A stretch of DNA of 31,908 bases from Desulfovibrionaceae bacterium (GTDB lineage: Bacteria; Desulfobacterota; Desulfovibrionia; Desulfovibrionales; Desulfovibrionaceae). Both the position numbers and the translations under genes were made by a program. Shown here piece after piece: positions 5,059 to 19,800 of the stretch. Numbering within the stretch: position 1 is the first letter of the stretch; the number at the start of each line of letters is the position of its first letter. The notes under the pieces were generated by a model. That model saw only the letters and a program-made list of their open reading frames with translations, made no database searches and had not been told where the DNA came from. Where the stretch lies: assembly GCA_017613475.1 (NCBI GenBank), contig JAGADT010000157.1, positions 1 through 31,908 of the forward strand. The letters run 5' to 3'.

Positions 5059-8000
5059 ATGCCGAAGCGTACAGATCTCCACAAAATCCTCATCATCGGT
5101 TCCGGCCCGATCATCATCGGGCAGGCCTGCGAATTCGACTACTCAGGAACACAGGGCATCAAGGCCCTCAAGGAAGAGGGCTACGAAATTGTTCTCGTCA
5201 ACTCCAATCCGGCGACGATTATGACCGACCCCGGACTGGCGGACCGCACCTATATCGAACCCATTGAGCCGGAAACCGTGGCGGCCATTGTCCGCAAGGA
5301 GCGCCCGGACGCCATCCTCCCCACGCTTGGCGGCCAGACGGGCCTGAATACGGCCCTTGAGCTTGCCAGGATGGGCGTGCTGGATGAATGCGGTACGGAG
5401 CTTATCGGCGTGCGTGCAGAATCCATTGAAAAGGCCGAAAGCCGCGAGCTGTTCCGCGAATGCATGCAGCGCATCGGCCTCAAGGTGCCTGCCAGCCGCA
5501 TTGTCCGCAGCATGGAGGAAATGCGCGAAGCCGCCAAAGAGCTGCCCTTCCCGCTTATCATCCGCCCGGCCTTCACCCTTGGCGGCACGGGCAGCGGCGT
5601 TGCCTACAACATGGAGGACCTTGAAGCCATCGTTGCCGATGGCCTGACCGCCAGCATGACGCACGAAGTTTTGCTGGAGCAGTCGGTCCTGGGCTGGAAA
5701 GAGCTGGAAATGGAGCTGGTGCGCGACAAGGATGACAACACCGTGGTCGTCTGCTCCATCGAGAACTTCGATGCCATGGGCGTGCACACCGGCGACTCCA
5801 TCACCGTGGCCCCGGCCCAGACGCTCAGCCCCGAAATCTACCGCAAAATGCTGGACGCCTCCATTGCCATCATGCAGGAAATCGGCGTCTGCGCCGGCGG
5901 CTCCAACATGCAGTTCGCCATCAACCCCAAAGACGGGGAAATGGTCGTCATTGAAATGAACCCGCGCGTTTCGCGCTCCTCGGCGCTGGCCTCCAAGGCC
6001 ACGGGCTTCCCCATCGCCCGCATTTCCGCCAAGCTCGCCGTGGGCTACACCCTGGATGAACTGCGCAACGACGTGGCCCAGAACCCCACCAAGTGCTACG
6101 AGCTGGCCATTGACTACTGCGTTATCAAAATCCCCCGCTTCAATTTTGAAAAATTCCCGGGCTCCAAGGACGAGCTGACCACCTCCATGAAGAGCGTCGG
6201 CGAAACCATGGCCCTGGGCCGCACCTTCAAGGAAGCGCTGCAGAAAGGCCTGCGCTCGCTTGAAATCGGCGCCGCCGGCCTTGGCGGGAACTTCCGCGCC
6301 GCCGTGCCCTCCGTTTCCGAGCTTATGCCCAAGCTGCGCATCCCCAATTCGCGCCGCATCTTTGCCGTGCGCGACGCCATGCTCGCCGGCATGAGCATTG
6401 AAGAAATCTACGAGGCCACCTGGATCGACCCCTGGTTCCTCAACGAAGTCAAGGACATCGTTGATGAGGAGCAGGCCATCCGCGACTTCGCCCTGGCCAA
6501 CGACACCACCCCCGCCAATCCGGAGCTCAAGCCTGTGCTTCAGCGCGCCAAGGAAATGGGCTTTTCCGACAGGCAGCTGGCCGAAATGTGGCGCCGCCCT
6601 GAAAGCGACATCCGCGCGCTGCGCAAGGCCACGGACGTGACGCCGGCCTACGGGCTCGTGGGCACCTGCGCCGCGGCCTTCAAGACCATGCCCTACTTCT
6701 TTTCCACCTACGGAAAGGGCGAGGAACTGCCCCCCACCTCCGGCCGCAAGGTCATGATCCTTGGCGGCGGCCCCAACCGCATCGGCCAGGGCATTGAGTT
6801 TGACTACTGCTGCTGCCATGCCTCCTACGCCCTCAGGGATGCCGGCGTGCAGGCCATCATGGTCAACTCCAACCCCGAAACCGTTTCCACCGACTACGAC
6901 ACCTCAGACCGCCTCTTCTTTGAACCCCTGACCTTTGAGGACGTGCTGCAGCTCGTTGAGCTGGAACGCCCGGACGGCGTCATCGTGCAGTTTGGCGGGC
7001 AGACCCCGCTTAACCTCGCCGTGCCGCTGATGCGCGCGGGCGTGCCCATCCTTGGCACCAGCCCCGATGCCATTGACCGCGCCGAAGACCGCGAGCGCTT
7101 CCAGGCGCTCCTCAAAAAGCTCTCCCTCCGCCAGCCGGCCAACGGCACGGCCCGCACGGTGGAAGAAGCCTGCGCGGTGGCGAGGGAAATCCACTACCCC
7201 ATCCTGGTGCGCCCCAGCTACGTGCTTGGCGGACGCGCCATGCAGGTCGTGTACGATGACGCCCAGCTCATGGAATACTTCGCCCGCCATGTGGGCAGCC
7301 AGGTCCTGGAGCACCCCATCCTCATCGACAAGTTCCTTGAAAACGCCATCGAGGTTGATGTGGACGCCCTTGCCGACGGCACGGACGTGTATGTGGCCGG
7401 CATCATGGAGCACATTGAAGAAGCCGGCATCCATTCCGGCGACTCCTCCTGCACGCTGCCGCCCTATTCGCTCCCGCAGGACATCATCGATGAAATCGAG
7501 CGCCAGACCCGCGCCCTCGCGCTGGAACTGCGCGTTGTCGGCCTGATGAACATCCAGTACGCCGTGAAGGACGGCGTGGTTTACATCCTCGAAGTCAATC
7601 CCCGGGCCTCGCGCACGGCGCCCTTTGTCTCCAAGGCAACGGGCGTGCCGCTGCCCCGCCTTGCCACGCAGATCATGATGGGCAAGACGCTGAAGGAGCT
7701 GAACCCCGACTCCATGCGCCGTTCGGGCTACACGGCCGTAAAGGAAGCCGTGTTCCCCTTCCGCCGCTTCCCGGGCGTGGATATCCTCCTTGGACCTGAA
7801 ATGCGCTCCACAGGCGAAGTCATGGGCATTGCGCCGACCTTTGAGGAAGCCTTCCTCAAGAGCCAGCTTGCCGCAGGGCAGAAGCTGCCTACCTCCGGGC
7901 GCGTCTTCATCTCCGTCAATGACAGCGACAAGCCGCAGGTCCTCCCCGTTGCCCGCCTCTTTGCGGACATGGGCTTTGAGCTGCTGGCCACCGCCGGCAC

Positions 8001-8301
8001 AGCCGCCACGCTGACGGCCGCGGGCATTCCGGCCGTGCGCGTGCACAAGCTGAGCGAGGGACGCCCCAACGTGGTGGACTACATCAAGAACAACGAGATC
8101 TCCCTGGTCGTCAACACGGCCTCCGGCAAAAACACCGCCGGCGACTCCAGGACCATCCGCCAGATCACCCTCCAGTACGGCCTGCCCTACACAACCACCA
8201 TCTCCGGCGCCAGGGCCATTGCGCGGTCCATTAAGTCAACCCTGGGCAAAGACTCCGGGAATATCCTTGTAACCGCGCTGCAAACCTACTACACTGAGTA
8301 A
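5059..8301 (+). CDS. carB: Carbamoyl-phosphate synthetase large subunit
   Basis: 1080 aa, MPKRTD...[10 protein letters not shown], two ATP-grasp domains and a C-terminal MGS-like allosteric domain; GGAGG SD. Confidence 0.99.
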
Positions 8302-8374: not shown

Positions 8375-9757
8375 ATGTGCGGACTCTTTGGCATTTCCAA
8401 CCATCCAGAAGCCTCCCGCATGGCCTATTTCGGCCTCTACGCGCAGCAGCACCGGGGGCAGGAAAGCGCGGGCATTGCCGCCCATGACGAAACGGGCATC
8501 CACGCCCACACAGGCATGGGCCTTGTTCCCGACGTGTTTGACGAGGCGGCGCTGAACCGCCTCACAGGCAGCGCCGCCATCGGGCATGTGCGCTACTCCA
8601 CAACCGGGTCTTCCGCCCTGCGCAACGCCCAGCCGCTTGTCGTGCACATCCGGGGCCTCAACCTCGCGCTCGCCCACAACGGCAACCTGACCAACGCCGC
8701 CGCCCTGCGCCGCGAGCTGGAAGAGCAGGGCTCCATTTTCCAGACCAACAGCGACAGCGAGACCTTTGTCCACCTCATCGCCCATGGCATGAAAAGCGCC
8801 GCCTCCCTGGAGGAGGCCATACGGGCGGCCTGCGCGCGCGTGCAGGGCGCCTACTCCCTGGTCATCCTGGCTGAGGGGCGCCTCATTGCCATCCGCGATC
8901 CGCACGGCTTCCATCCCCTGGCGCTGGGACGCGCCGAAAAATCCTGGGTTGTCGCCTCGGAAACCTGCGCCCTGGACCTGCTGGAAGCGGAATACATCCG
9001 CGACATCGATCCGGGGGAAATGCTCATCATCTCCGGCGATAACCTCAACTCCCAAAAGCTGGACGGAGCGGGGAGCGTGCCCATCCGCCAGTGCATTTTT
9101 GAGCTCGTCTACTTTGCCCGGCCGGATTCCCGCATTTTTGGAGAAGAGGTCTACACCTGCCGCAAAAACATGGGGCTGGAACTGGCCAAAGAAGCCCCCA
9201 GCGAAGCCCAGCTCACCATGCCCTTCCCCGATTCCGGCATTTATGCCGCCATCGGCTATTCGCAGGGCACGGGCATTCCCTACGAGCACGCCCTCATCCG
9301 CAACCACTATGTGGGCCGCACCTTCATCCAGCCTTCCCAGGGCATGCGCAGCTTCGGCGTGCGGGTAAAGCTCAACCCCGTGCGCTCCGTCATCAGCGGC
9401 AGGCATATCTGCGTTATCGATGACTCCGTTGTCCGCGGAACGACCATGCGCACCCGCGTGGGCAAGCTCAGGGAGCACGGCGCAAAAATTGTGGACGCGC
9501 GCATCAGCTGCCCGCCCGTGCGCTTCCCCTGCTTTTACGGCGTGAACTTCTCCACCGCGGAGGAGCTTACCGCAGCCAGGCATCCGCTCAGCGAGCTGCC
9601 CCGCCTCCTCAACCTGGATTCCCTCTGCTATTTGAGCATCGAGGGACTGCTTAGGACGGTAAAGGAGCCGGACCATTACTGCCTCGCCTGCTTCAACGGC
9701 AGCTACCCCACGCCTGTGCCCTCCTGCAGCGGCTGCAAAGCCTGCGGCCAGGCGTAA
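8375..9757 (+). CDS. purF: Amidophosphoribosyltransferase
   Basis: N-terminal MCG, QHRGQESAG, GHVRYST, AHNGNL, PRPP motif IDDSVVRGTT, Fe-S cysteines (CIFE, CFYG, CLAC). Confidence 0.98.
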   Translation: MCGLFGISNHPEASRMAYFGLYAQQHRGQESAGIAAHDETGIHAHTGMGLVPDVFDEAALNRLTGSAAIGHVRYSTTGSSALRNAQPLVVHIRGLNLALAHNGNLTNAAALRRELEEQGSIFQTNSDSETFVHLIAHGMKSAASLEEAIRAACARVQGAYSLVILAEGRLIAIRDPHGFHPLALGRAEKSWVVASETCALDLLEAEYIRDIDPGEMLIISGDNLNSQKLDGAGSVPIRQCIFELVYFARPDSRIFGEEVYTCRKNMGLELAKEAPSEAQLTMPFPDSGIYAAIGYSQGTGIPYEHALIRNHYVGRTFIQPSQGMRSFGVRVKLNPVRSVISGRHICVIDDSVVRGTTMRTRVGKLREHGAKIVDARISCPPVRFPCFYGVNFSTAEELTAARHPLSELPRLLNLDSLCYLSIEGLLRTVKEPDHYCLACFNGSYPTPVPSCSGCKACGQA

Positions 9758-14366: not shown

Positions 14367-16613
14367 CTAGCGGTAGTAAAGGTTCCTGCCGCCCGCTGTC
14401 AGCAGCAGCTGCTCAAGATTGGCGCGGACTTCCCTGCGGTCCCAGACGCCCTGGATGTGCCCGCGCGAAAGCGCCTTGTAGGCGCTGTGGTAATGCGGGG
14501 GGACATCTATGCCGGTTGTCTCCTTGATAACGCCAACACCGGCAAAGCCAAGATTGGAGGAACGCATGGCAAACTGATATGGCGAGCAGCCAAGGAAGCT
14601 GGCTACAGGCCCCGCATAGGAATTGGTATCATACAGCACAAGATACAGGCCGCCGGCCTCAATATAGCGGCGGACAGCCACCGTGCAGCGCGGCATCTGG
14701 ATGACGCCGTGCGTGCCTTCCTGTATGCGGATGCCTGCCGTGCCGTGCACATAGGCCAGGAACGGATAGCGCTTTTTTTCCGCAAGCTTGGCCGCCTCAA
14801 CAAATTTCAGGCCTTCAGCCGCGCCTACGGAACCGCCCCTGAACGGCCCGACCAGCATGGCCACAATCATGCGTATGCCATTGAGCCTGGCTTCAAAGGT
14901 CACGCAGGCGCTCTTAAGCTTTGTCTTTTCCTTGGCTTTCTGGATGCTTTCGCCAAGCCCCGGGAAATTGAGGGGGTTGGCGGCCTCCACCTCGGCATTG
15001 AATTCACGCACCGAATCAGCATCGAAAACGTTATTGACAACCCACTGGTATTCCATGGGGAAATGGTGGCCGCACGTCGTGCATACGCCGGCGAACTCCC
15101 CGTACAGGTCAGGGGCCCAGAGATCAAGGCAGCCGTGCGTGGCCGCGTTGGGGCAGGTAACCGTCCTGTCTTCGCGCGCGCGGGGGCTGACATAGGCCCA
15201 GCGGCCCTTGCGGGATTCATCCTCTTCCTTCCACGTGGAAAGCGTGGTCAGCTCACGCACGGTTTCAGGCCGCAACCGCGGGCCTACGGGCTTGCGGGTG
15301 ATGGGGTAAAGCATCCTGTCCCGCAGCCAGACCGCCATCGAGAGGGTTTCATTCATGAAATTGGAAATCCGCTGCCGGTGGCGGGTGTACAATTCAAACT
15401 TAACGCGGGCGTAAAGGCTGTCCCAGGATTCCCGCGCATTGCGGCGCAGCCGGCTTAAAACCGGGCGCCTGTCCCAGCAGGCGCCTTTTGAGAGGCGCAG
15501 GAACTTCTTCTGGCGTTTCGCAACAAGCTTTTCCCGGGCGGAATCGCTGAGGTTCCAGCTCAAGAACACTTCATCCATGTTGGTATCGTCACGCCCCCAG
15601 CGGCGCAGCGTCAGGCGGCGCATGGGGCTAAACCCGCGCGCGCCGAGAACGGCTTCGTCCGTGGCCCGGATGACTTCCTGCCGCAGGGTGCGGAAAAAGT
15701 CGTAATGGAAGGGGCGGGCGCCAAGGCAGGGCTCCTGAACAATCCTGTCCACATAGCCAAAATTCAGGTTGTCCTGGGCGGTCATGTGCAGGCGCTCTGC
15801 GCAGTGGGCAATAAGCTCCGGCGTGGCCCTGGCTCCCCCTTTGAGCCTCCCCTCAATGGCGGCGGCCCCTTCGGGGGAAATCACGGAATAGTAGCCATGG
15901 GAAAACATCAGGCGGCGGTCAGCCAGGGCAATGGCCTCGGCCCCGCCGGAACCGCCCTCGGAAATCACGGAAATGATCGGCACGGAAAGCCCGGCCATTT
16001 CGTAAAGGTTGCTGGCAATCTGCTGCGCCGCGCCGGGATAGTCCTCCACAGGAAAGGAACCGGGCGTAAACACGTAGGTATGGATGGGGATGTTTTCCGT
16101 TTCGGCAACCTGCATGAAGTGCCTGGCCTTGGCATTGCCCCAGGGCTTTACGGACCCGCCGTTGCGGAATTCTTCGCCATGGCCCTTTTCCTGCCCGATA
16201 ACCATGATGAGCTGGCTGTACTTCTTTTTGCCCTGGTGGCGGGTAATGGTGGCGCGGGCAATGACCATGCTGGGGTCTATGCTGTGCTCATCCTGTCCGC
16301 CGATTTCGGTAAAGTTGTCGTAGACATTTTCCAGGATGTCCCGCAGGCAAAAACGCTGCGGATGGCGCACAATGCGCACCTTTTCCATGGGCGTCAGGCT
16401 GCTGTCGAGCAGGCGCTCAACTTCATCAAAGCCCTTTTCAAGCTGCACAAGCTCTTCCAGCGGGCTCTTCATGCTGCCATCGGCAAGATTCTGGAAAAAG
16501 GAATCCAGGCGCACGCCCAGGGAATCAATAATTTCGCCGTTCCGCCCGACAAAGATATCCCTGATATAACTCAGCCGGTCCGTAAGATGCTGGGCTCTTT
16601 TTTCTATATCCAT
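14367..16613 (-). CDS. Acyl-CoA carboxylase carboxyltransferase, fused alpha (AccA-like) and beta (AccD-like) domains
   Basis: VRIVRHPQR, GQEKGH, EGGSGGA, YSVISPEGAAAI (alpha); Zn-ribbon CPN...C...CTTCGHHF, GGSVG, GIRIQEG, GFAG (beta). Confidence 0.9.
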   Translation of the reverse strand: MDIEKRAQHLTDRLSYIRDIFVGRNGEIIDSLGVRLDSFFQNLADGSMKSPLEELVQLEKGFDEVERLLDSSLTPMEKVRIVRHPQRFCLRDILENVYDNFTEIGGQDEHSIDPSMVIARATITRHQGKKKYSQLIMVIGQEKGHGEEFRNGGSVKPWGNAKARHFMQVAETENIPIHTYVFTPGSFPVEDYPGAAQQIASNLYEMAGLSVPIISVISEGGSGGAEAIALADRRLMFSHGYYSVISPEGAAAIEGRLKGGARATPELIAHCAERLHMTAQDNLNFGYVDRIVQEPCLGARPFHYDFFRTLRQEVIRATDEAVLGARGFSPMRRLTLRRWGRDDTNMDEVFLSWNLSDSAREKLVAKRQKKFLRLSKGACWDRRPVLSRLRRNARESWDSLYARVKFELYTRHRQRISNFMNETLSMAVWLRDRMLYPITRKPVGPRLRPETVRELTTLSTWKEEDESRKGRWAYVSPRAREDRTVTCPNAATHGCLDLWAPDLYGEFAGVCTTCGHHFPMEYQWVVNNVFDADSVREFNAEVEAANPLNFPGLGESIQKAKEKTKLKSACVTFEARLNGIRMIVAMLVGPFRGGSVGAAEGLKFVEAAKLAEKKRYPFLAYVHGTAGIRIQEGTHGVIQMPRCTVAVRRYIEAGGLYLVLYDTNSYAGPVASFLGCSPYQFAMRSSNLGFAGVGVIKETTGIDVPPHYHSAYKALSRGHIQGVWDRREVRANLEQLLLTAGGRNLYYR

Positions 16614-16663
16614 TGGCTGTGAAGGCCTCCCACCATCCCGCAGGACGGCGCAAAAGGAATGTT

Positions 16664-18085
16664 TCAGGCAAAACGCAGAATGCCGTCCGTACGATCTTTC
16701 AGGAAAGCCACATTCGACTGGAGGGGAGAACCATCCTTGTCATGCCCCTCCAAAACAAGGCTGTCCAGGAAGGCATGTCCGCGGGCCTTGGCTTCGGCAA
16801 GATCCGCGCCCCAGACGATGGCCAGGGCCAGGTTCGGGTCAAATTCCGTGGGAATGTCATAGGGCGTGCCGTCCAGCGCCGCGGGCACATGCGTGTGCAT
16901 GGAAAGCCACGGCTGCGGCTCCCAGGAAAAGCGTTCTATGCGCCCGACCCACGGGGAAAAATGGTTCGCCGGATCTTCGGCGATAATGCGGTATTCAATG
17001 CCAAAGCCTTCCAGCGAAACATCGCTCTGGGTATAGCCCAACGGCTCGCCAAGGCCCAGGCGGATCTGCTCGGAGATCAAATCCACCCCCGGCTTGCCAT
17101 TCAGGCGGGCGATTTTGGCGGACACGCCGTTTTCAACCTGGATGCGGGTGTTCACTTCCATAAGGAAGGGGCTGCCGTCGCGCGTAACGATCCATTCCCA
17201 GGTGCCTACGTTGTCGTAGCCAACCTTCTGGGCAAGCTTAAGCGAGTGGCTGGTAATGGTGTCGAGCAGCGCCGCGGCATCAAAATCGTATTTGATGTCC
17301 GCGGGGGCAAAGCCCGGCGCGACTTCAAGGCGCTTCTGCCGGCCGGTGGACTGGATTGAGCAGTTCCTCGTGCCGAAATGCACGGGATTTTTGCCCGTGC
17401 GGTCGGCAACAATCTGCACCTCAAGATGGTTGAACTCGCAGATGCGCTGCTCAATCAGCACGCCTTCATCCTTGAACTGGCGCAGGGCGTAATTGCGGAT
17501 GCTGCGGTACACGGAGCGGAACTGATCGATATCGTACACTTCCTCAATGCCCATTCCGCCGCCGCCCGCAGAAGCCTTGACCAGCACCAGAGGATGGGCC
17601 ACGCCCTGCTGCAGCTGGAATTCGTACAGGCTGCGGGCGATTTTCTCCGCTTCCTGCTCATCATAAATGGGGCGGTCAGAGCCAGGCACTGTGGGCACGC
17701 CCAGGCTCCTCGCCAGGCGCTTGGTATTGATTTTGTCGCCAAGCGCCTGAATGACCTGCCAGGAAGGCCCGATGAAAATCATTTTCCTGTCCCTGGTGGT
17801 CACACGGCGGGCAAAACGAAAATCCTCCGCAAAAAAGCCGTAGCCGGGATGAACGGCCGTCGCTCCAGCCTGGTCGGCCACGGAAAGGATTTCATTGGCA
17901 TCATGGTACGAGGAAACCCGAAACAACGCGCCGCCAAGCTCGCGGGCCACCTGCAGGTGCCCGGAGGCAGCGTCCTCTTCCGTATATACACAGGCAAAGC
18001 CTATGCCCAGGCGATGGCATGCCTGCGCAATGCGAACCGCGATTTCGCCGCGGTTTGCAATAAGAACGATGTGATTTGTGTCCAC
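16664..18085 (-). CDS. accC: Biotin carboxylase
   Basis: VLIANRGEIAVRI, HPGYGFFAED, KASAGGGGMG, RNCSIQ, MEVNTRIQVE. GTG at 18085 is preferred over 18091 because AGGAG sits 5 nt upstream. Confidence 0.92.
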   Translation of the reverse strand: MDTNHIVLIANRGEIAVRIAQACHRLGIGFACVYTEEDAASGHLQVARELGGALFRVSSYHDANEILSVADQAGATAVHPGYGFFAEDFRFARRVTTRDRKMIFIGPSWQVIQALGDKINTKRLARSLGVPTVPGSDRPIYDEQEAEKIARSLYEFQLQQGVAHPLVLVKASAGGGGMGIEEVYDIDQFRSVYRSIRNYALRQFKDEGVLIEQRICEFNHLEVQIVADRTGKNPVHFGTRNCSIQSTGRQKRLEVAPGFAPADIKYDFDAAALLDTITSHSLKLAQKVGYDNVGTWEWIVTRDGSPFLMEVNTRIQVENGVSAKIARLNGKPGVDLISEQIRLGLGEPLGYTQSDVSLEGFGIEYRIIAEDPANHFSPWVGRIERFSWEPQPWLSMHTHVPAALDGTPYDIPTEFDPNLALAIVWGADLAEAKARGHAFLDSLVLEGHDKDGSPLQSNVAFLKDRTDGILRFA

Positions 18086-18230
18086 TGGCACTCCTGATAA
18101 CTTGCAGCGAAAAACTCAAAACAATCTCTCACCGCCAACCCTCAATGTACCTGAATTCGCTGCTAAGGTCCAGACCGCTTTTCTTATGCACGGGTTCCCC
18201 GTTTACGGCTGTTCAAGCTACGCGCAGAAA

Positions 18231-19412
18231 TCACTTCGCACGGGCTTCCAGCAGGGGAAGCATCCCGTTTTCAGCCATTTTGCCGCGCACAGCATCAGGA
18301 AGGCTTTCAAGGCGCTTCTTCGTGACAACGGCCCCATGGTCCAAAAGAAGCGTCACAACATCCCTGCTGCCGCCGTAGGCGGCAAGCTCCAGAGCCGTAG
18401 CGCCGCCCGTGAGCGCCGCGCTGCTGTCCGCCCCCCTTTCCAGCAGCAGGCTGACGACATCGGCATGGCCGTTCACAGCGGCAGCGATCAGCGCCGTGCC
18501 TCCATCCCCGGCCCTGGCTTCAAGCGCAGCGCCCTTATCCAGCAGGCATTCAGCAATTTCCGCCTTGCCCTGCCTTGCCGCAACCATGAGCGGCGTCCAT
18601 CCTTCCGCATCCTGGCTGTCCACAGCGGCGCCTTTTTCCAACAGCAGCTTTGCCGCAGCCGCCTGCCCGCTTATGGCAGCCCGCACAAGCGCGGTATTGC
18701 CCTCTCCATCCCTGGCATCAACGGGCACTCCCCGCTCCAAAAGCAGCAAGATCACGGCCGTCTTGCCTTTTTCCGCAGCCACCGTAAGGGGCGTCAGCCC
18801 CTGCCTGGTCTGCGCGTTCACATCCGCTCCCTTATCCAGCAGGAGCGCTGCAATGCCGGCATGCCCTTCACGGGCGGCAGCCATAAGCGCCGTCCAGCCA
18901 TTCACATCTTCAGGGGCCACAGCGGCGCCCTTTTCCAGCAGCAGCTTTGCCGTGCCTTCATGCCCCTCGCGGGCGGCAAGCATCAGCGAGGTCCAGCCAT
19001 CGGCATCACGGGCATTAATATCCGCCTTTTTTTCCAGCAGGAGGGCGGCTGCCTGCGCCTGCCCCCTGGATGAAGCAAGCATAAGGGCTGTGCCGCCGTC
19101 CTTAGCCCGTGCAATATTGGGGTCCGCACCCCGCTCCAGGAGCAGGCGGACAATTTCGGCATGGCCGTTGATAGCTGCGGCCATAAGCGGGGTCGATCCG
19201 CCCAGGGATTCCGCCCTGCCGTTTACATCGCTTCCATCATCCAGCGCTTCCCGCACAGCTTTGGGCGTGCCGCTTCTGCACAGCTTCACAAACGCGTCAG
19301 CCGGCATGGCAGAGGCAATGGATGCGGCAAGCAAAAGCACGGAGACCGCCGCAAAAAGAGGGCGCGCAAGGCAGACAAAACGAGGGATTCCATATTGCTG
19401 AAAAAAAGACAT
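18231..19412 (-). CDS. Secreted ankyrin-repeat protein (~10 repeats)
   Basis: 33-aa repeats GxTxLMxAAxxGHxxxxxLLLEKGAxV; signal-like LFAAVSVLLLAASIASA. Start uncertain (19412 chosen; 19442 or 19457 possible). Confidence 0.9.
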   Translation of the reverse strand: MSFFQQYGIPRFVCLARPLFAAVSVLLLAASIASAMPADAFVKLCRSGTPKAVREALDDGSDVNGRAESLGGSTPLMAAAINGHAEIVRLLLERGADPNIARAKDGGTALMLASSRGQAQAAALLLEKKADINARDADGWTSLMLAAREGHEGTAKLLLEKGAAVAPEDVNGWTALMAAAREGHAGIAALLLDKGADVNAQTRQGLTPLTVAAEKGKTAVILLLLERGVPVDARDGEGNTALVRAAISGQAAAAKLLLEKGAAVDSQDAEGWTPLMVAARQGKAEIAECLLDKGAALEARAGDGGTALIAAAVNGHADVVSLLLERGADSSAALTGGATALELAAYGGSRDVVTLLLDHGAVVTKKRLESLPDAVRGKMAENGMLPLLEARAK

Positions 19413-19800
19413 ACGCCTATTCCTGAAATATTTTCCGGCCATGCGCCGGATTTTCATACAGTTTGAACGGGACATCTGCAGCAGATCCAGGCTCCTTGCC
19501 AAACAGCGGGCGCGCCCTGAGGATAGAAAGCCCTTCCCGCTCAGGTTTCCCGGCGCCATGCCGGCAAAAAACTGCCCCATAGATTTATTAATATAATATC
19601 ATCAAAAGCAAAGACAAGACCATATCAAACCAGTGTGGATGAAATAGAGGCTTCCCCTCCTTCCTGCAGGGCTGTCCCAAGGCAGTGAACATGGCTTTAG
19701 GTCTCTGCATAAGCGCGGCCATGCCATGGCGCGACATCCATTGACAAACGCTGCCGTAACAGCCACTTTTTGCCAAAAAGCACACGCTGGGAAAACCGTT

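Follow-up and report, generated by a model that had tools for sequence, protein, structure and literature searches.

A CarB encoded away from carA in a Desulfovibrionaceae bacterium, altered around its modelled CarA contacts: a candidate ammonium-using carbamoyl phosphate synthetase

Background

Bacterial carbamoyl phosphate synthetase (CPS) is treated in textbooks as a glutamine-dependent enzyme. The locus described here raises the question of whether one of its large subunits, CarB, may have come to do without its partner CarA. The gene lies on contig JAGADT010000157.1 (assembly GCA_017613475.1) of a gut-type Desulfovibrionaceae bacterium, a stretch of 31,908 nucleotides that is called the window below. 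A sequence-only reading of the window had pointed to a carB gene with intact catalytic sites and four altered motifs, and had suggested either a stand-alone, ammonia-dependent CPS or a large subunit that works with a co-diverged CarA. We find that the gene is one of two carB genes in its genome, that its product has changed at a short list of conserved columns, and that several of these columns are also replaced in other CarBs that are encoded away from carA. At slightly better than even chances, we favour the reading that this gene codes for a second, functional large subunit of CPS which is CarA-independent, or becoming so, and which would take free NH3/NH4+ directly.

Results and discussion

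An intact large subunit with changes at conserved columns

The gene and its altered segments are the following, with substitutions given in E. coli numbering.

5059..8301, plus strand: carB paralog (CarB2-like), 1080 amino acids, a full four-domain CPS large subunit (NF003671, TIGR01369)
5821..5856, plus strand: helix 255-266, which forms the tunnel wall and docks CarA, with D258P, E260I, Q262R and R265L and with Y261 kept (alignment of relatives)
5887..5910, plus strand: VCAGGSNM, with E278C, T279A and V284M; VCAGG corresponds to residues 277-281
6076..6117, plus strand: loop residues 340-353, with T340A, T344P, A346K, F348Y and P350L (alignment of relatives); the altered TPASFEPSIDY motif within it is residues 343-353, nucleotides 6085-6117
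6658..6702, plus strand: segment with D530G, E535A, A538T, T540M and Y544F and a one-residue deletion (alignment of relatives); VGTCAAAF within it is residues 534-541, nucleotides 6658-6681

The protein is a member of the CarB family, with 1601.7 bits against NF003671 (cut-off 599) and 1438.3 bits against TIGR01369 (cut-off 1027). Its alignment with E. coli CarB (1bxr_A, 1306 bits) covers the full length of the protein; it has the four-domain architecture in common with E. coli CarAB (PDB 1BXR/1JDB) and is collinear with it over residues 1-1059. Residues are numbered here by the E. coli K-12 carB sequence, and the site lists follow in part the E. coli literature. The window copy is held by strong purifying selection: its open reading frame has no stops or frameshifts, and against its ortholog in a congeneric genome (G001_C11) the ratio of nonsynonymous to synonymous substitution (dN/dS) is 0.043 at a dS of 0.62, below the 0.072 found for the carA-linked carB genes of the same two genomes.

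The ATP-grasp residues and the allosteric motifs are retained, as had been read from the sequence. R129, R169, H243, Q285, E299, N301 and R303 are all kept, and the NH3 gate residues C232/A251/A314 (PMC8674909) are intact. The C-half ATP site, the K+ loop and the carbamate-tunnel, ornithine and UMP/IMP sites are unchanged or the same as in the canonical, carA-linked paralog of this genome. In both ATP-grasp active sites, in the carbamate tunnel and in the allosteric domain, the window CarB thus has the residues of the family, and the catalytic, tunnel and allosteric residues are those of E. coli CarAB.

The four motif changes on which the earlier suggestion rested are all present at the positions given above, in motifs that are nearly invariant among the CarBs of 30 relatives. 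The change at N266 proved not to be special to this copy, as N266D is also found in the canonical paralog and in most relatives. As a reference we took the 285 columns with at least 95% conservation in a set of 41 canonical CarBs that was drawn from two phyla and covers Desulfovibrionales, Bacteroidales and E. coli. Of these columns, 17 are changed in the window lineage, compared with 0-8 for canonical controls and a single column for the carA-linked paralog. The changes are V220L, E260I, R265L, V284M, A323S, T340A, T344P, A346K, F348Y, P350L, I387L, D530G, E535A, A538T, T540M, Y544F and Y617F. All but the last lie in residues 215-390 or 525-545, to which only 87 of the 285 columns belong (Fisher p 2.6e-8), and these approximately 16 fixed substitutions cluster in helix 254-266, loop 340-354 and segment 530-545. 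Y617F is the sole deviation outside residues 220-548 and the sole change in the carbamoyl-phosphate domain, while the allosteric domain has none. The window CarB thus differs from that of E. coli in helix 255-266, loop 340-350 and segment 530-544, and does not keep the docking-surface residues (R265, T344, F348, P350, D530 and others) that are invariant in CarA-partnered CarBs.

The 16 changes are common to all four members of the 90% cluster to which the window copy belongs, and a deeper branch, P0023 (74% identical, on a long branch), has 14 of the 16 changes scored in its alignment. The derived residues were thus fixed a single time and conserved from then on, which speaks against decay. 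Of 5.8 billion protein clusters, only this one (4 sequences) and P0023 represent the derived type, and its sole carriers among 300 sampled genomes of the family are the genome of the window and its congener G001.

Two large subunits and one CarA

The window belongs to a metagenome-assembled genome (MAG; G000) of 1.3 Mb in 194 contigs, which is 74% complete with 0.76% contamination; the congeneric genome G001 is 93% complete. A search of G000 for carA and for a second carB, as proposed in the sequence-only reading, found both on another contig (C87). The encoded CarA scores 433.6 bits against TIGR01368, is 43% identical to E. coli CarA and keeps the Cys-His-Glu triad (C269, H353, E355). Directly downstream of carA lies the second carB (P0002), the product of which is 76% identical to the window copy and keeps every canonical motif; upstream of carA lie the genes of an ammonium transporter (amt) and of a P-II protein. 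Scans for promoters and terminators around the two carB loci did not exceed the counts obtained from shuffles, and for this reason amt-PII-carA-carB is termed a cluster here and not an operon. G001 has two carB genes in the same two contexts and one carA. Both genomes therefore hold a carB away from carA alongside a carA-carB pair.

Since carA adjoins a second, canonical carB, the window enzyme is not the only CPS of the cell but one of two large subunits. Nothing speaks for the proposed co-diverged partner, as G000 (74% complete) and G001 (93% complete) each yielded a single carA. A canonical carA that forms a normal complex with the window CarB had been named beforehand as evidence against direct ammonia use, and half of this is indeed found, a carA with an intact triad being present. 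In contrast to E. coli, the window carB is not encoded together with carA, and it is a second, canonical CarB that adjoins carA in its genome. Annotation pipelines will label both genes "glutamine-hydrolysing CPS large subunit".

The same columns are replaced in other lone CarBs

In B. thetaiotaomicron, CarAB (BT0556-57) is accompanied by a lone CarB2 (BT3866) (Liu et al. 2021, Cell Rep, PMC8121099). The carB2 gene was found to be important with ammonium present and carAB only without ammonium; carB2 is not co-fit with carA, and the authors propose an ammonium-dependent CPS, a proposal that rests on one transposon sequencing (Tn-seq) study, without biochemistry (PMC8121099). Purified bacterial CarB alone is an ammonium-dependent CPS according to work as it is cited in that paper (PMC8121099).

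Three Bacteroides/Phocaeicola genomes (Bacteroides sp. KFT8, B. hominis and P. vulgatus) were reached by a 16S probe scan, and each of them has a carA-carB pair, a lone carB2 and one carA. Their CarB2 proteins, which were picked by context and literature and not by motif, deviate at 25-26 of the conserved columns. Seven deviating columns (R265, V284, T340, T344, F348, D530 and A538) are common to these proteins and the window lineage, where 1.5 would be expected (p 2e-4). A third lone lineage is formed by the CarB on contig 3 of G013, a genome of another Desulfovibrionaceae genus. This protein (G013_C3) has 11 deviating columns in common with the window lineage, again against 1.5 expected, a figure (p 2e-9) that is biased by its motif-led choice. 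Six columns, R265, V284, T344, F348, D530 and A538, are replaced in all three lone lineages, where 0.13 would be expected. The replacing residues vary: R265 has become Ile in G013_C3 and Gln or Lys in Bacteroides CarB2, and D530 is Gly, Lys or Asn in the three lineages.

The window copy resembles BT3866 in being a second full-length carB that is unlinked to carA and has intact catalytic sites. The window copy is only ~41-43% identical to the Bacteroides proteins, however, and it is much younger and less eroded, with a milder pattern: unlike Bacteroides CarB2 it keeps Y261, Q254, T255, N227, E349 and the gate residue C232. The G013 contig 3 CarB (L022/L042) is likewise a vertically inherited copy that lost the same columns, and its change also came after the genome had gained a separate carA-carB pair. 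That pair (L041, on contig 1, the chromosome) is of a foreign type, 56% identical, which is unlike the situation in the genome of the window. Erosion is also further along in the G013 protein, with 25 columns changed, including Y261 and R389. A more distant parallel is vertebrate CPS I, which has an intact synthetase part and uses free ammonia (PMC4655335), the latter as is proposed for the window protein. Vertebrate CPS I has a fused, docked and inactive glutaminase-like domain and needs N-acetylglutamate; a domain of this type is missing from the window protein, in which the bacterial ornithine and UMP sites are kept.

Some further observations were made on CarBs of the family. The eroded lone carB of G013 lies on a contig of 195 kb, and G101, G145 and G176, which belong to the same genus, also show two carB genes; two are thus found in all four sampled genomes of this genus with enough sequence. 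A very divergent second CarB (L043) is encoded on contig 2 of G038, which also has a canonical carB. It is 52% identical, sits on a long branch and has 39 conserved columns changed, 10 of which are modelled CarA contacts (see below); it may be another lone CarB. P0084, a protein from a cluster of 74 sequences and 73% identical to the window CarB, is otherwise a canonical CarB of the Desulfovibrionaceae: its changes are confined to the docking helix (Y261T, R265C), and the FEP loop and VDTC are kept. It may represent an early or incomplete stage of the same development.

Position of the changes relative to the modelled CarA face

The sequence-only reading had called for a model of the complex. 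The G000 CarA was modelled with residues 1-560 of the window CarB, and the model was used mainly as a map from which the contact set was taken. The modelled CarB contacts are residues 227, 252, 254-259, 261-262, 265-266, 290-293, 333, 344-354, 388-390, 447, 457-459, 462, 532, 537 and 552-553. D258P, Q262R, R265L, A346K, F348Y and P350L fall within this set. Both clusters of change also lie inside the pdb-informed contact regions of EVcomplex, in which CarB 335-550 meets CarA 2-135 and CarB 125-425 meets CarA 190-380 (PMC4360534).

Nine of the 16 deviating columns are within three residues of a modelled contact, compared with 26 of the 150 other conserved columns (p 0.001). When columns that are at least 85% conserved are taken, which adds D258P and Q262R, direct contacts make up 6 of 24 deviating columns versus 19 of 244 others (p 0.015). 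In the other lone CarBs the concentration on direct contacts is more pronounced, with 9/23 versus 9/143 for G013_C3 (p 9e-5) and 8/20 versus 10/146 for Bacteroides CarB2 (p 2e-4). The supposition that the altered motifs face CarA thus agrees with the model for helix 255-266, loop 344-354 and residues 532/537, but not for the change from VETGG to VCAGG, as E278 and T279 are outside the modelled interface.

In the same model the PGPHD motif of CarA sits against CarB helix 254-266, and within this motif His361 of E. coli CarA is Ser in the CarA of G000 (L003 138-1295). Kim and Raushel reportedly perforated the ammonia tunnel in 2004 by mutating R265 together with two CarA residues. The latter we take to be P360 and H361, which with R265 would make up the tunnel wall that was perforated in the E. 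coli experiments.

The altered copy holds the ancestral locus

The immediate neighbours of the window carB are the following.

4405..4908, minus strand: Nudix hydrolase gene, divergent, upstream of carB and kept there in G001 and G002
8375..9757, plus strand: purF (amidophosphoribosyltransferase; TIGR01134 511 bits, cut-off 350), 73 bp downstream of carB

The gene order of the locus, with the Nudix gene on the minus strand, carB, purF and a heptosyltransferase gene, is syntenic with the single carB locus of the congeners G002 and G003, and the carA of G003 lies elsewhere in the genome without an adjoining carB. The window copy occupies the ancestral carB-purF locus; the copy linked to carA was added. 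PurF was considered as an alternative amidotransferase partner and was ruled out, since the carB-purF order is ancestral and is present in species with a single canonical carB.

In the phylogenetic tree the window copy, its G001 ortholog and P0023 form a clade with 100% support. Around it branch the canonical single-copy CarBs of the genus, with P0004 as its sister and then G002 and G004, and the carA-linked copies form a separate clade within the same genus-level group. When the two paralog clades were held together, the approximately unbiased (AU) test gave p 0.0545; the choice here is between duplication and transfer within the genus. As the window copy nests in the canonical CarB clade of its own genus, it is not an ortholog of BT3866 and its origin is independent. 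Unlike BT3866 it holds the ancestral carB locus. The somewhat likelier account is that the window copy is a recently born enzyme that would work like B. thetaiotaomicron CarB2 and that arose independently. A more far-reaching formulation is that the birth of an ammonia-dependent CPS has been caught in the act, the ancestral carB having fixed some 16 substitutions that were later conserved and of which six recur in every lone lineage examined. This we regard as possible, with chances a little short of even.

Free ammonium or a shared CarA

If the window CarB is indeed an ammonium-using enzyme that does without CarA, the need to dock CarA and to seal the mouth of the tunnel would formerly have kept the changed positions constant. 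This constraint would have lapsed once a carA-linked carB was present, and the new state would then have been fixed. Ammonia would enter through the unsealed tunnel mouth, and the six recurrent changes together might switch the enzyme from a CarA-fed to a free-ammonia-fed state. It is of relevance that variants of the E. coli enzyme are still active with external ammonia when their glutamine tunnel is blocked or perforated (PMC4655335). Carbamoyl phosphate is probably made by the window CarB directly from ammonium. The window enzyme would be used with plentiful ammonium and the amt-PII-carA-carB set with scarce nitrogen, as has been proposed for CarB2 versus CarAB in B. thetaiotaomicron. The relaxed or lost CarA docking, and the possible direct use of ammonia, that the sequence-only reading had put forward thus gain from the replacement of the same columns in two independent lone lineages; the CarB may have lost CarA binding, but a canonical carA is present and the model of the complex passes.

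The latter is one of several findings that weigh against this reading. The model reached an ipSAE (a score of interface confidence) of 0.80, compared with 0.00 for the best of three controls, with at least 81% contact agreement between runs and a predicted local distance difference test (pLDDT) score of at least 81 for the partner; of 78 solved complexes 51 attained that mark, and of 108 mismatched pairs 2 did. Just four of the approximately 17 conserved contact columns are changed in the window CarB, and the enrichment of deviating columns at direct contacts is marginal (4/16 versus 14/150, p 0.08). The modelled-contact residues N227, Q254, T255, Y261, E349 and R389 are kept. The overlap statistic of G013_C3 is biased, that protein having been noticed through its motifs. 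Finally, at 74% completeness an extra carA in G000 is possible; G001, at 93%, likewise shows a single carA. As for the model, a like complex has already been solved, so that the pass shows likeness, probably through the predictor's memory of the solved E. coli enzyme, and says nothing on which member of the family binds.

Some of these findings speak for the main alternative, in which both large subunits draw on the one CarA. The window copy would then still be glutamine-dependent, its changes would tune coupling or affinity or represent neutral drift on the rim of a large interface, and the main difference between the paralogs would be one of regulation or expression, for instance constitutive versus nitrogen-regulated. 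Besides the passing model and the majority of conserved contact residues that are kept, the identical allosteric sites of the two copies agree with this. Moreover, the interface of the homologous human enzyme measures ~2400 A2 (PMC4655335), so that a few changes need not abolish CarA binding. However, no CarB that has one CarA partner varies at the changed columns, be its carA linked or unlinked; in G003, an unlinked case, there are 0 deviations. The lone CarBs of Bacteroides show changes in the same columns, and carB2 is not co-fit with carA there (PMC8121099); none of the lone lineages examined has kept R265, and a pass of the model is expected from likeness alone. We therefore consider a shared CarA a serious but doubtful explanation.

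It is quite improbable that the window copy is a decaying redundant duplicate or a catalyst of a changed reaction other than carbamoyl-phosphate synthesis. It does have more conserved-column deviations than any canonical relative, and its branch exceeds that of P0004, its canonical sister, in length by a factor of ~1.7. Yet the low dN/dS and the uninterrupted reading frame argue against decay, as do the conservation of the derived residues over the clade and a CarB equivalog score far above the cut-off, and with the catalytic, K+, tunnel and allosteric residues intact and only one of the 17 deviations outside residues 220-548, neither decay nor a changed reaction fits well. Weakest of all is the possibility that the two carB copies come from two organisms that were binned together: although G000 is a fragmented and incomplete MAG, its contamination is low, GC content (0.63) and GC content at third codon positions (GC3, 0.83) are identical for both copies, and the same two copies occur in the same contexts in the independent genome G001, which indicates that the paralogy is real.

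Other genes of the window and of the family

Two Sel1-repeat proteins are encoded on the plus strand at positions 1-741 and 923-1429 of the window, and a protein of 449 amino acids that consists almost wholly of ankyrin repeats on the minus strand at 18231-19580. The genome size of G000, scaled by completeness, is ~1.7 Mb, compared with 2.1-2.3 Mb or more in congeners. Taken together, the eukaryote-like repeat proteins and the reduced genome are a hint that the bacterium may live in association with a host or inside its cells. Also on the minus strand (14367-18091), a gene for a fused acetyl-CoA carboxylase carboxyltransferase (748 amino acids) adjoins one for a biotin carboxylase of 475 amino acids, an ordinary fatty-acid synthesis pair. 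Rfam and tRNA searches of the window gave no hits.

In the survey of the family for carB, which was made with the window protein as query at E 1e-50 or 1e-100, with no family-model check of non-matching genomes, several near-complete genomes gave no match, e.g. G023 (100% complete), G011, G078 and the genera g19 and g67. These bacteria may be without a CPS, or may have another route to carbamoyl phosphate.

Conclusions

The kind of enzyme considered here is already known, as Bacteroides CarB2 was described in 2021 (PMC8121099). What is new is an independent and, it appears, very recent origin in the Desulfovibrionaceae, in which the copy at the ancestral locus changed after a carA-linked copy had appeared, and a short list of conserved substitutions, six of which recur across lineages. 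With a canonical and a derived paralog in one cell, 76% identical, the organism offers a nearly ideal natural pair for the residues that matter in the contact of CarB with CarA and in the sealing of the tunnel. If the more far-reaching formulation given above, that of an ammonia-dependent CPS caught at its birth, is true, the six recurrent sites would be minimal determinants of CarA dependence, and a two-CPS system, with one enzyme for high and one for low ammonium, would have evolved repeatedly in gut anaerobes. The locus also strengthens the case that selection in anaerobic habitats rich in ammonia favours nitrogen assimilation without a glutaminase.

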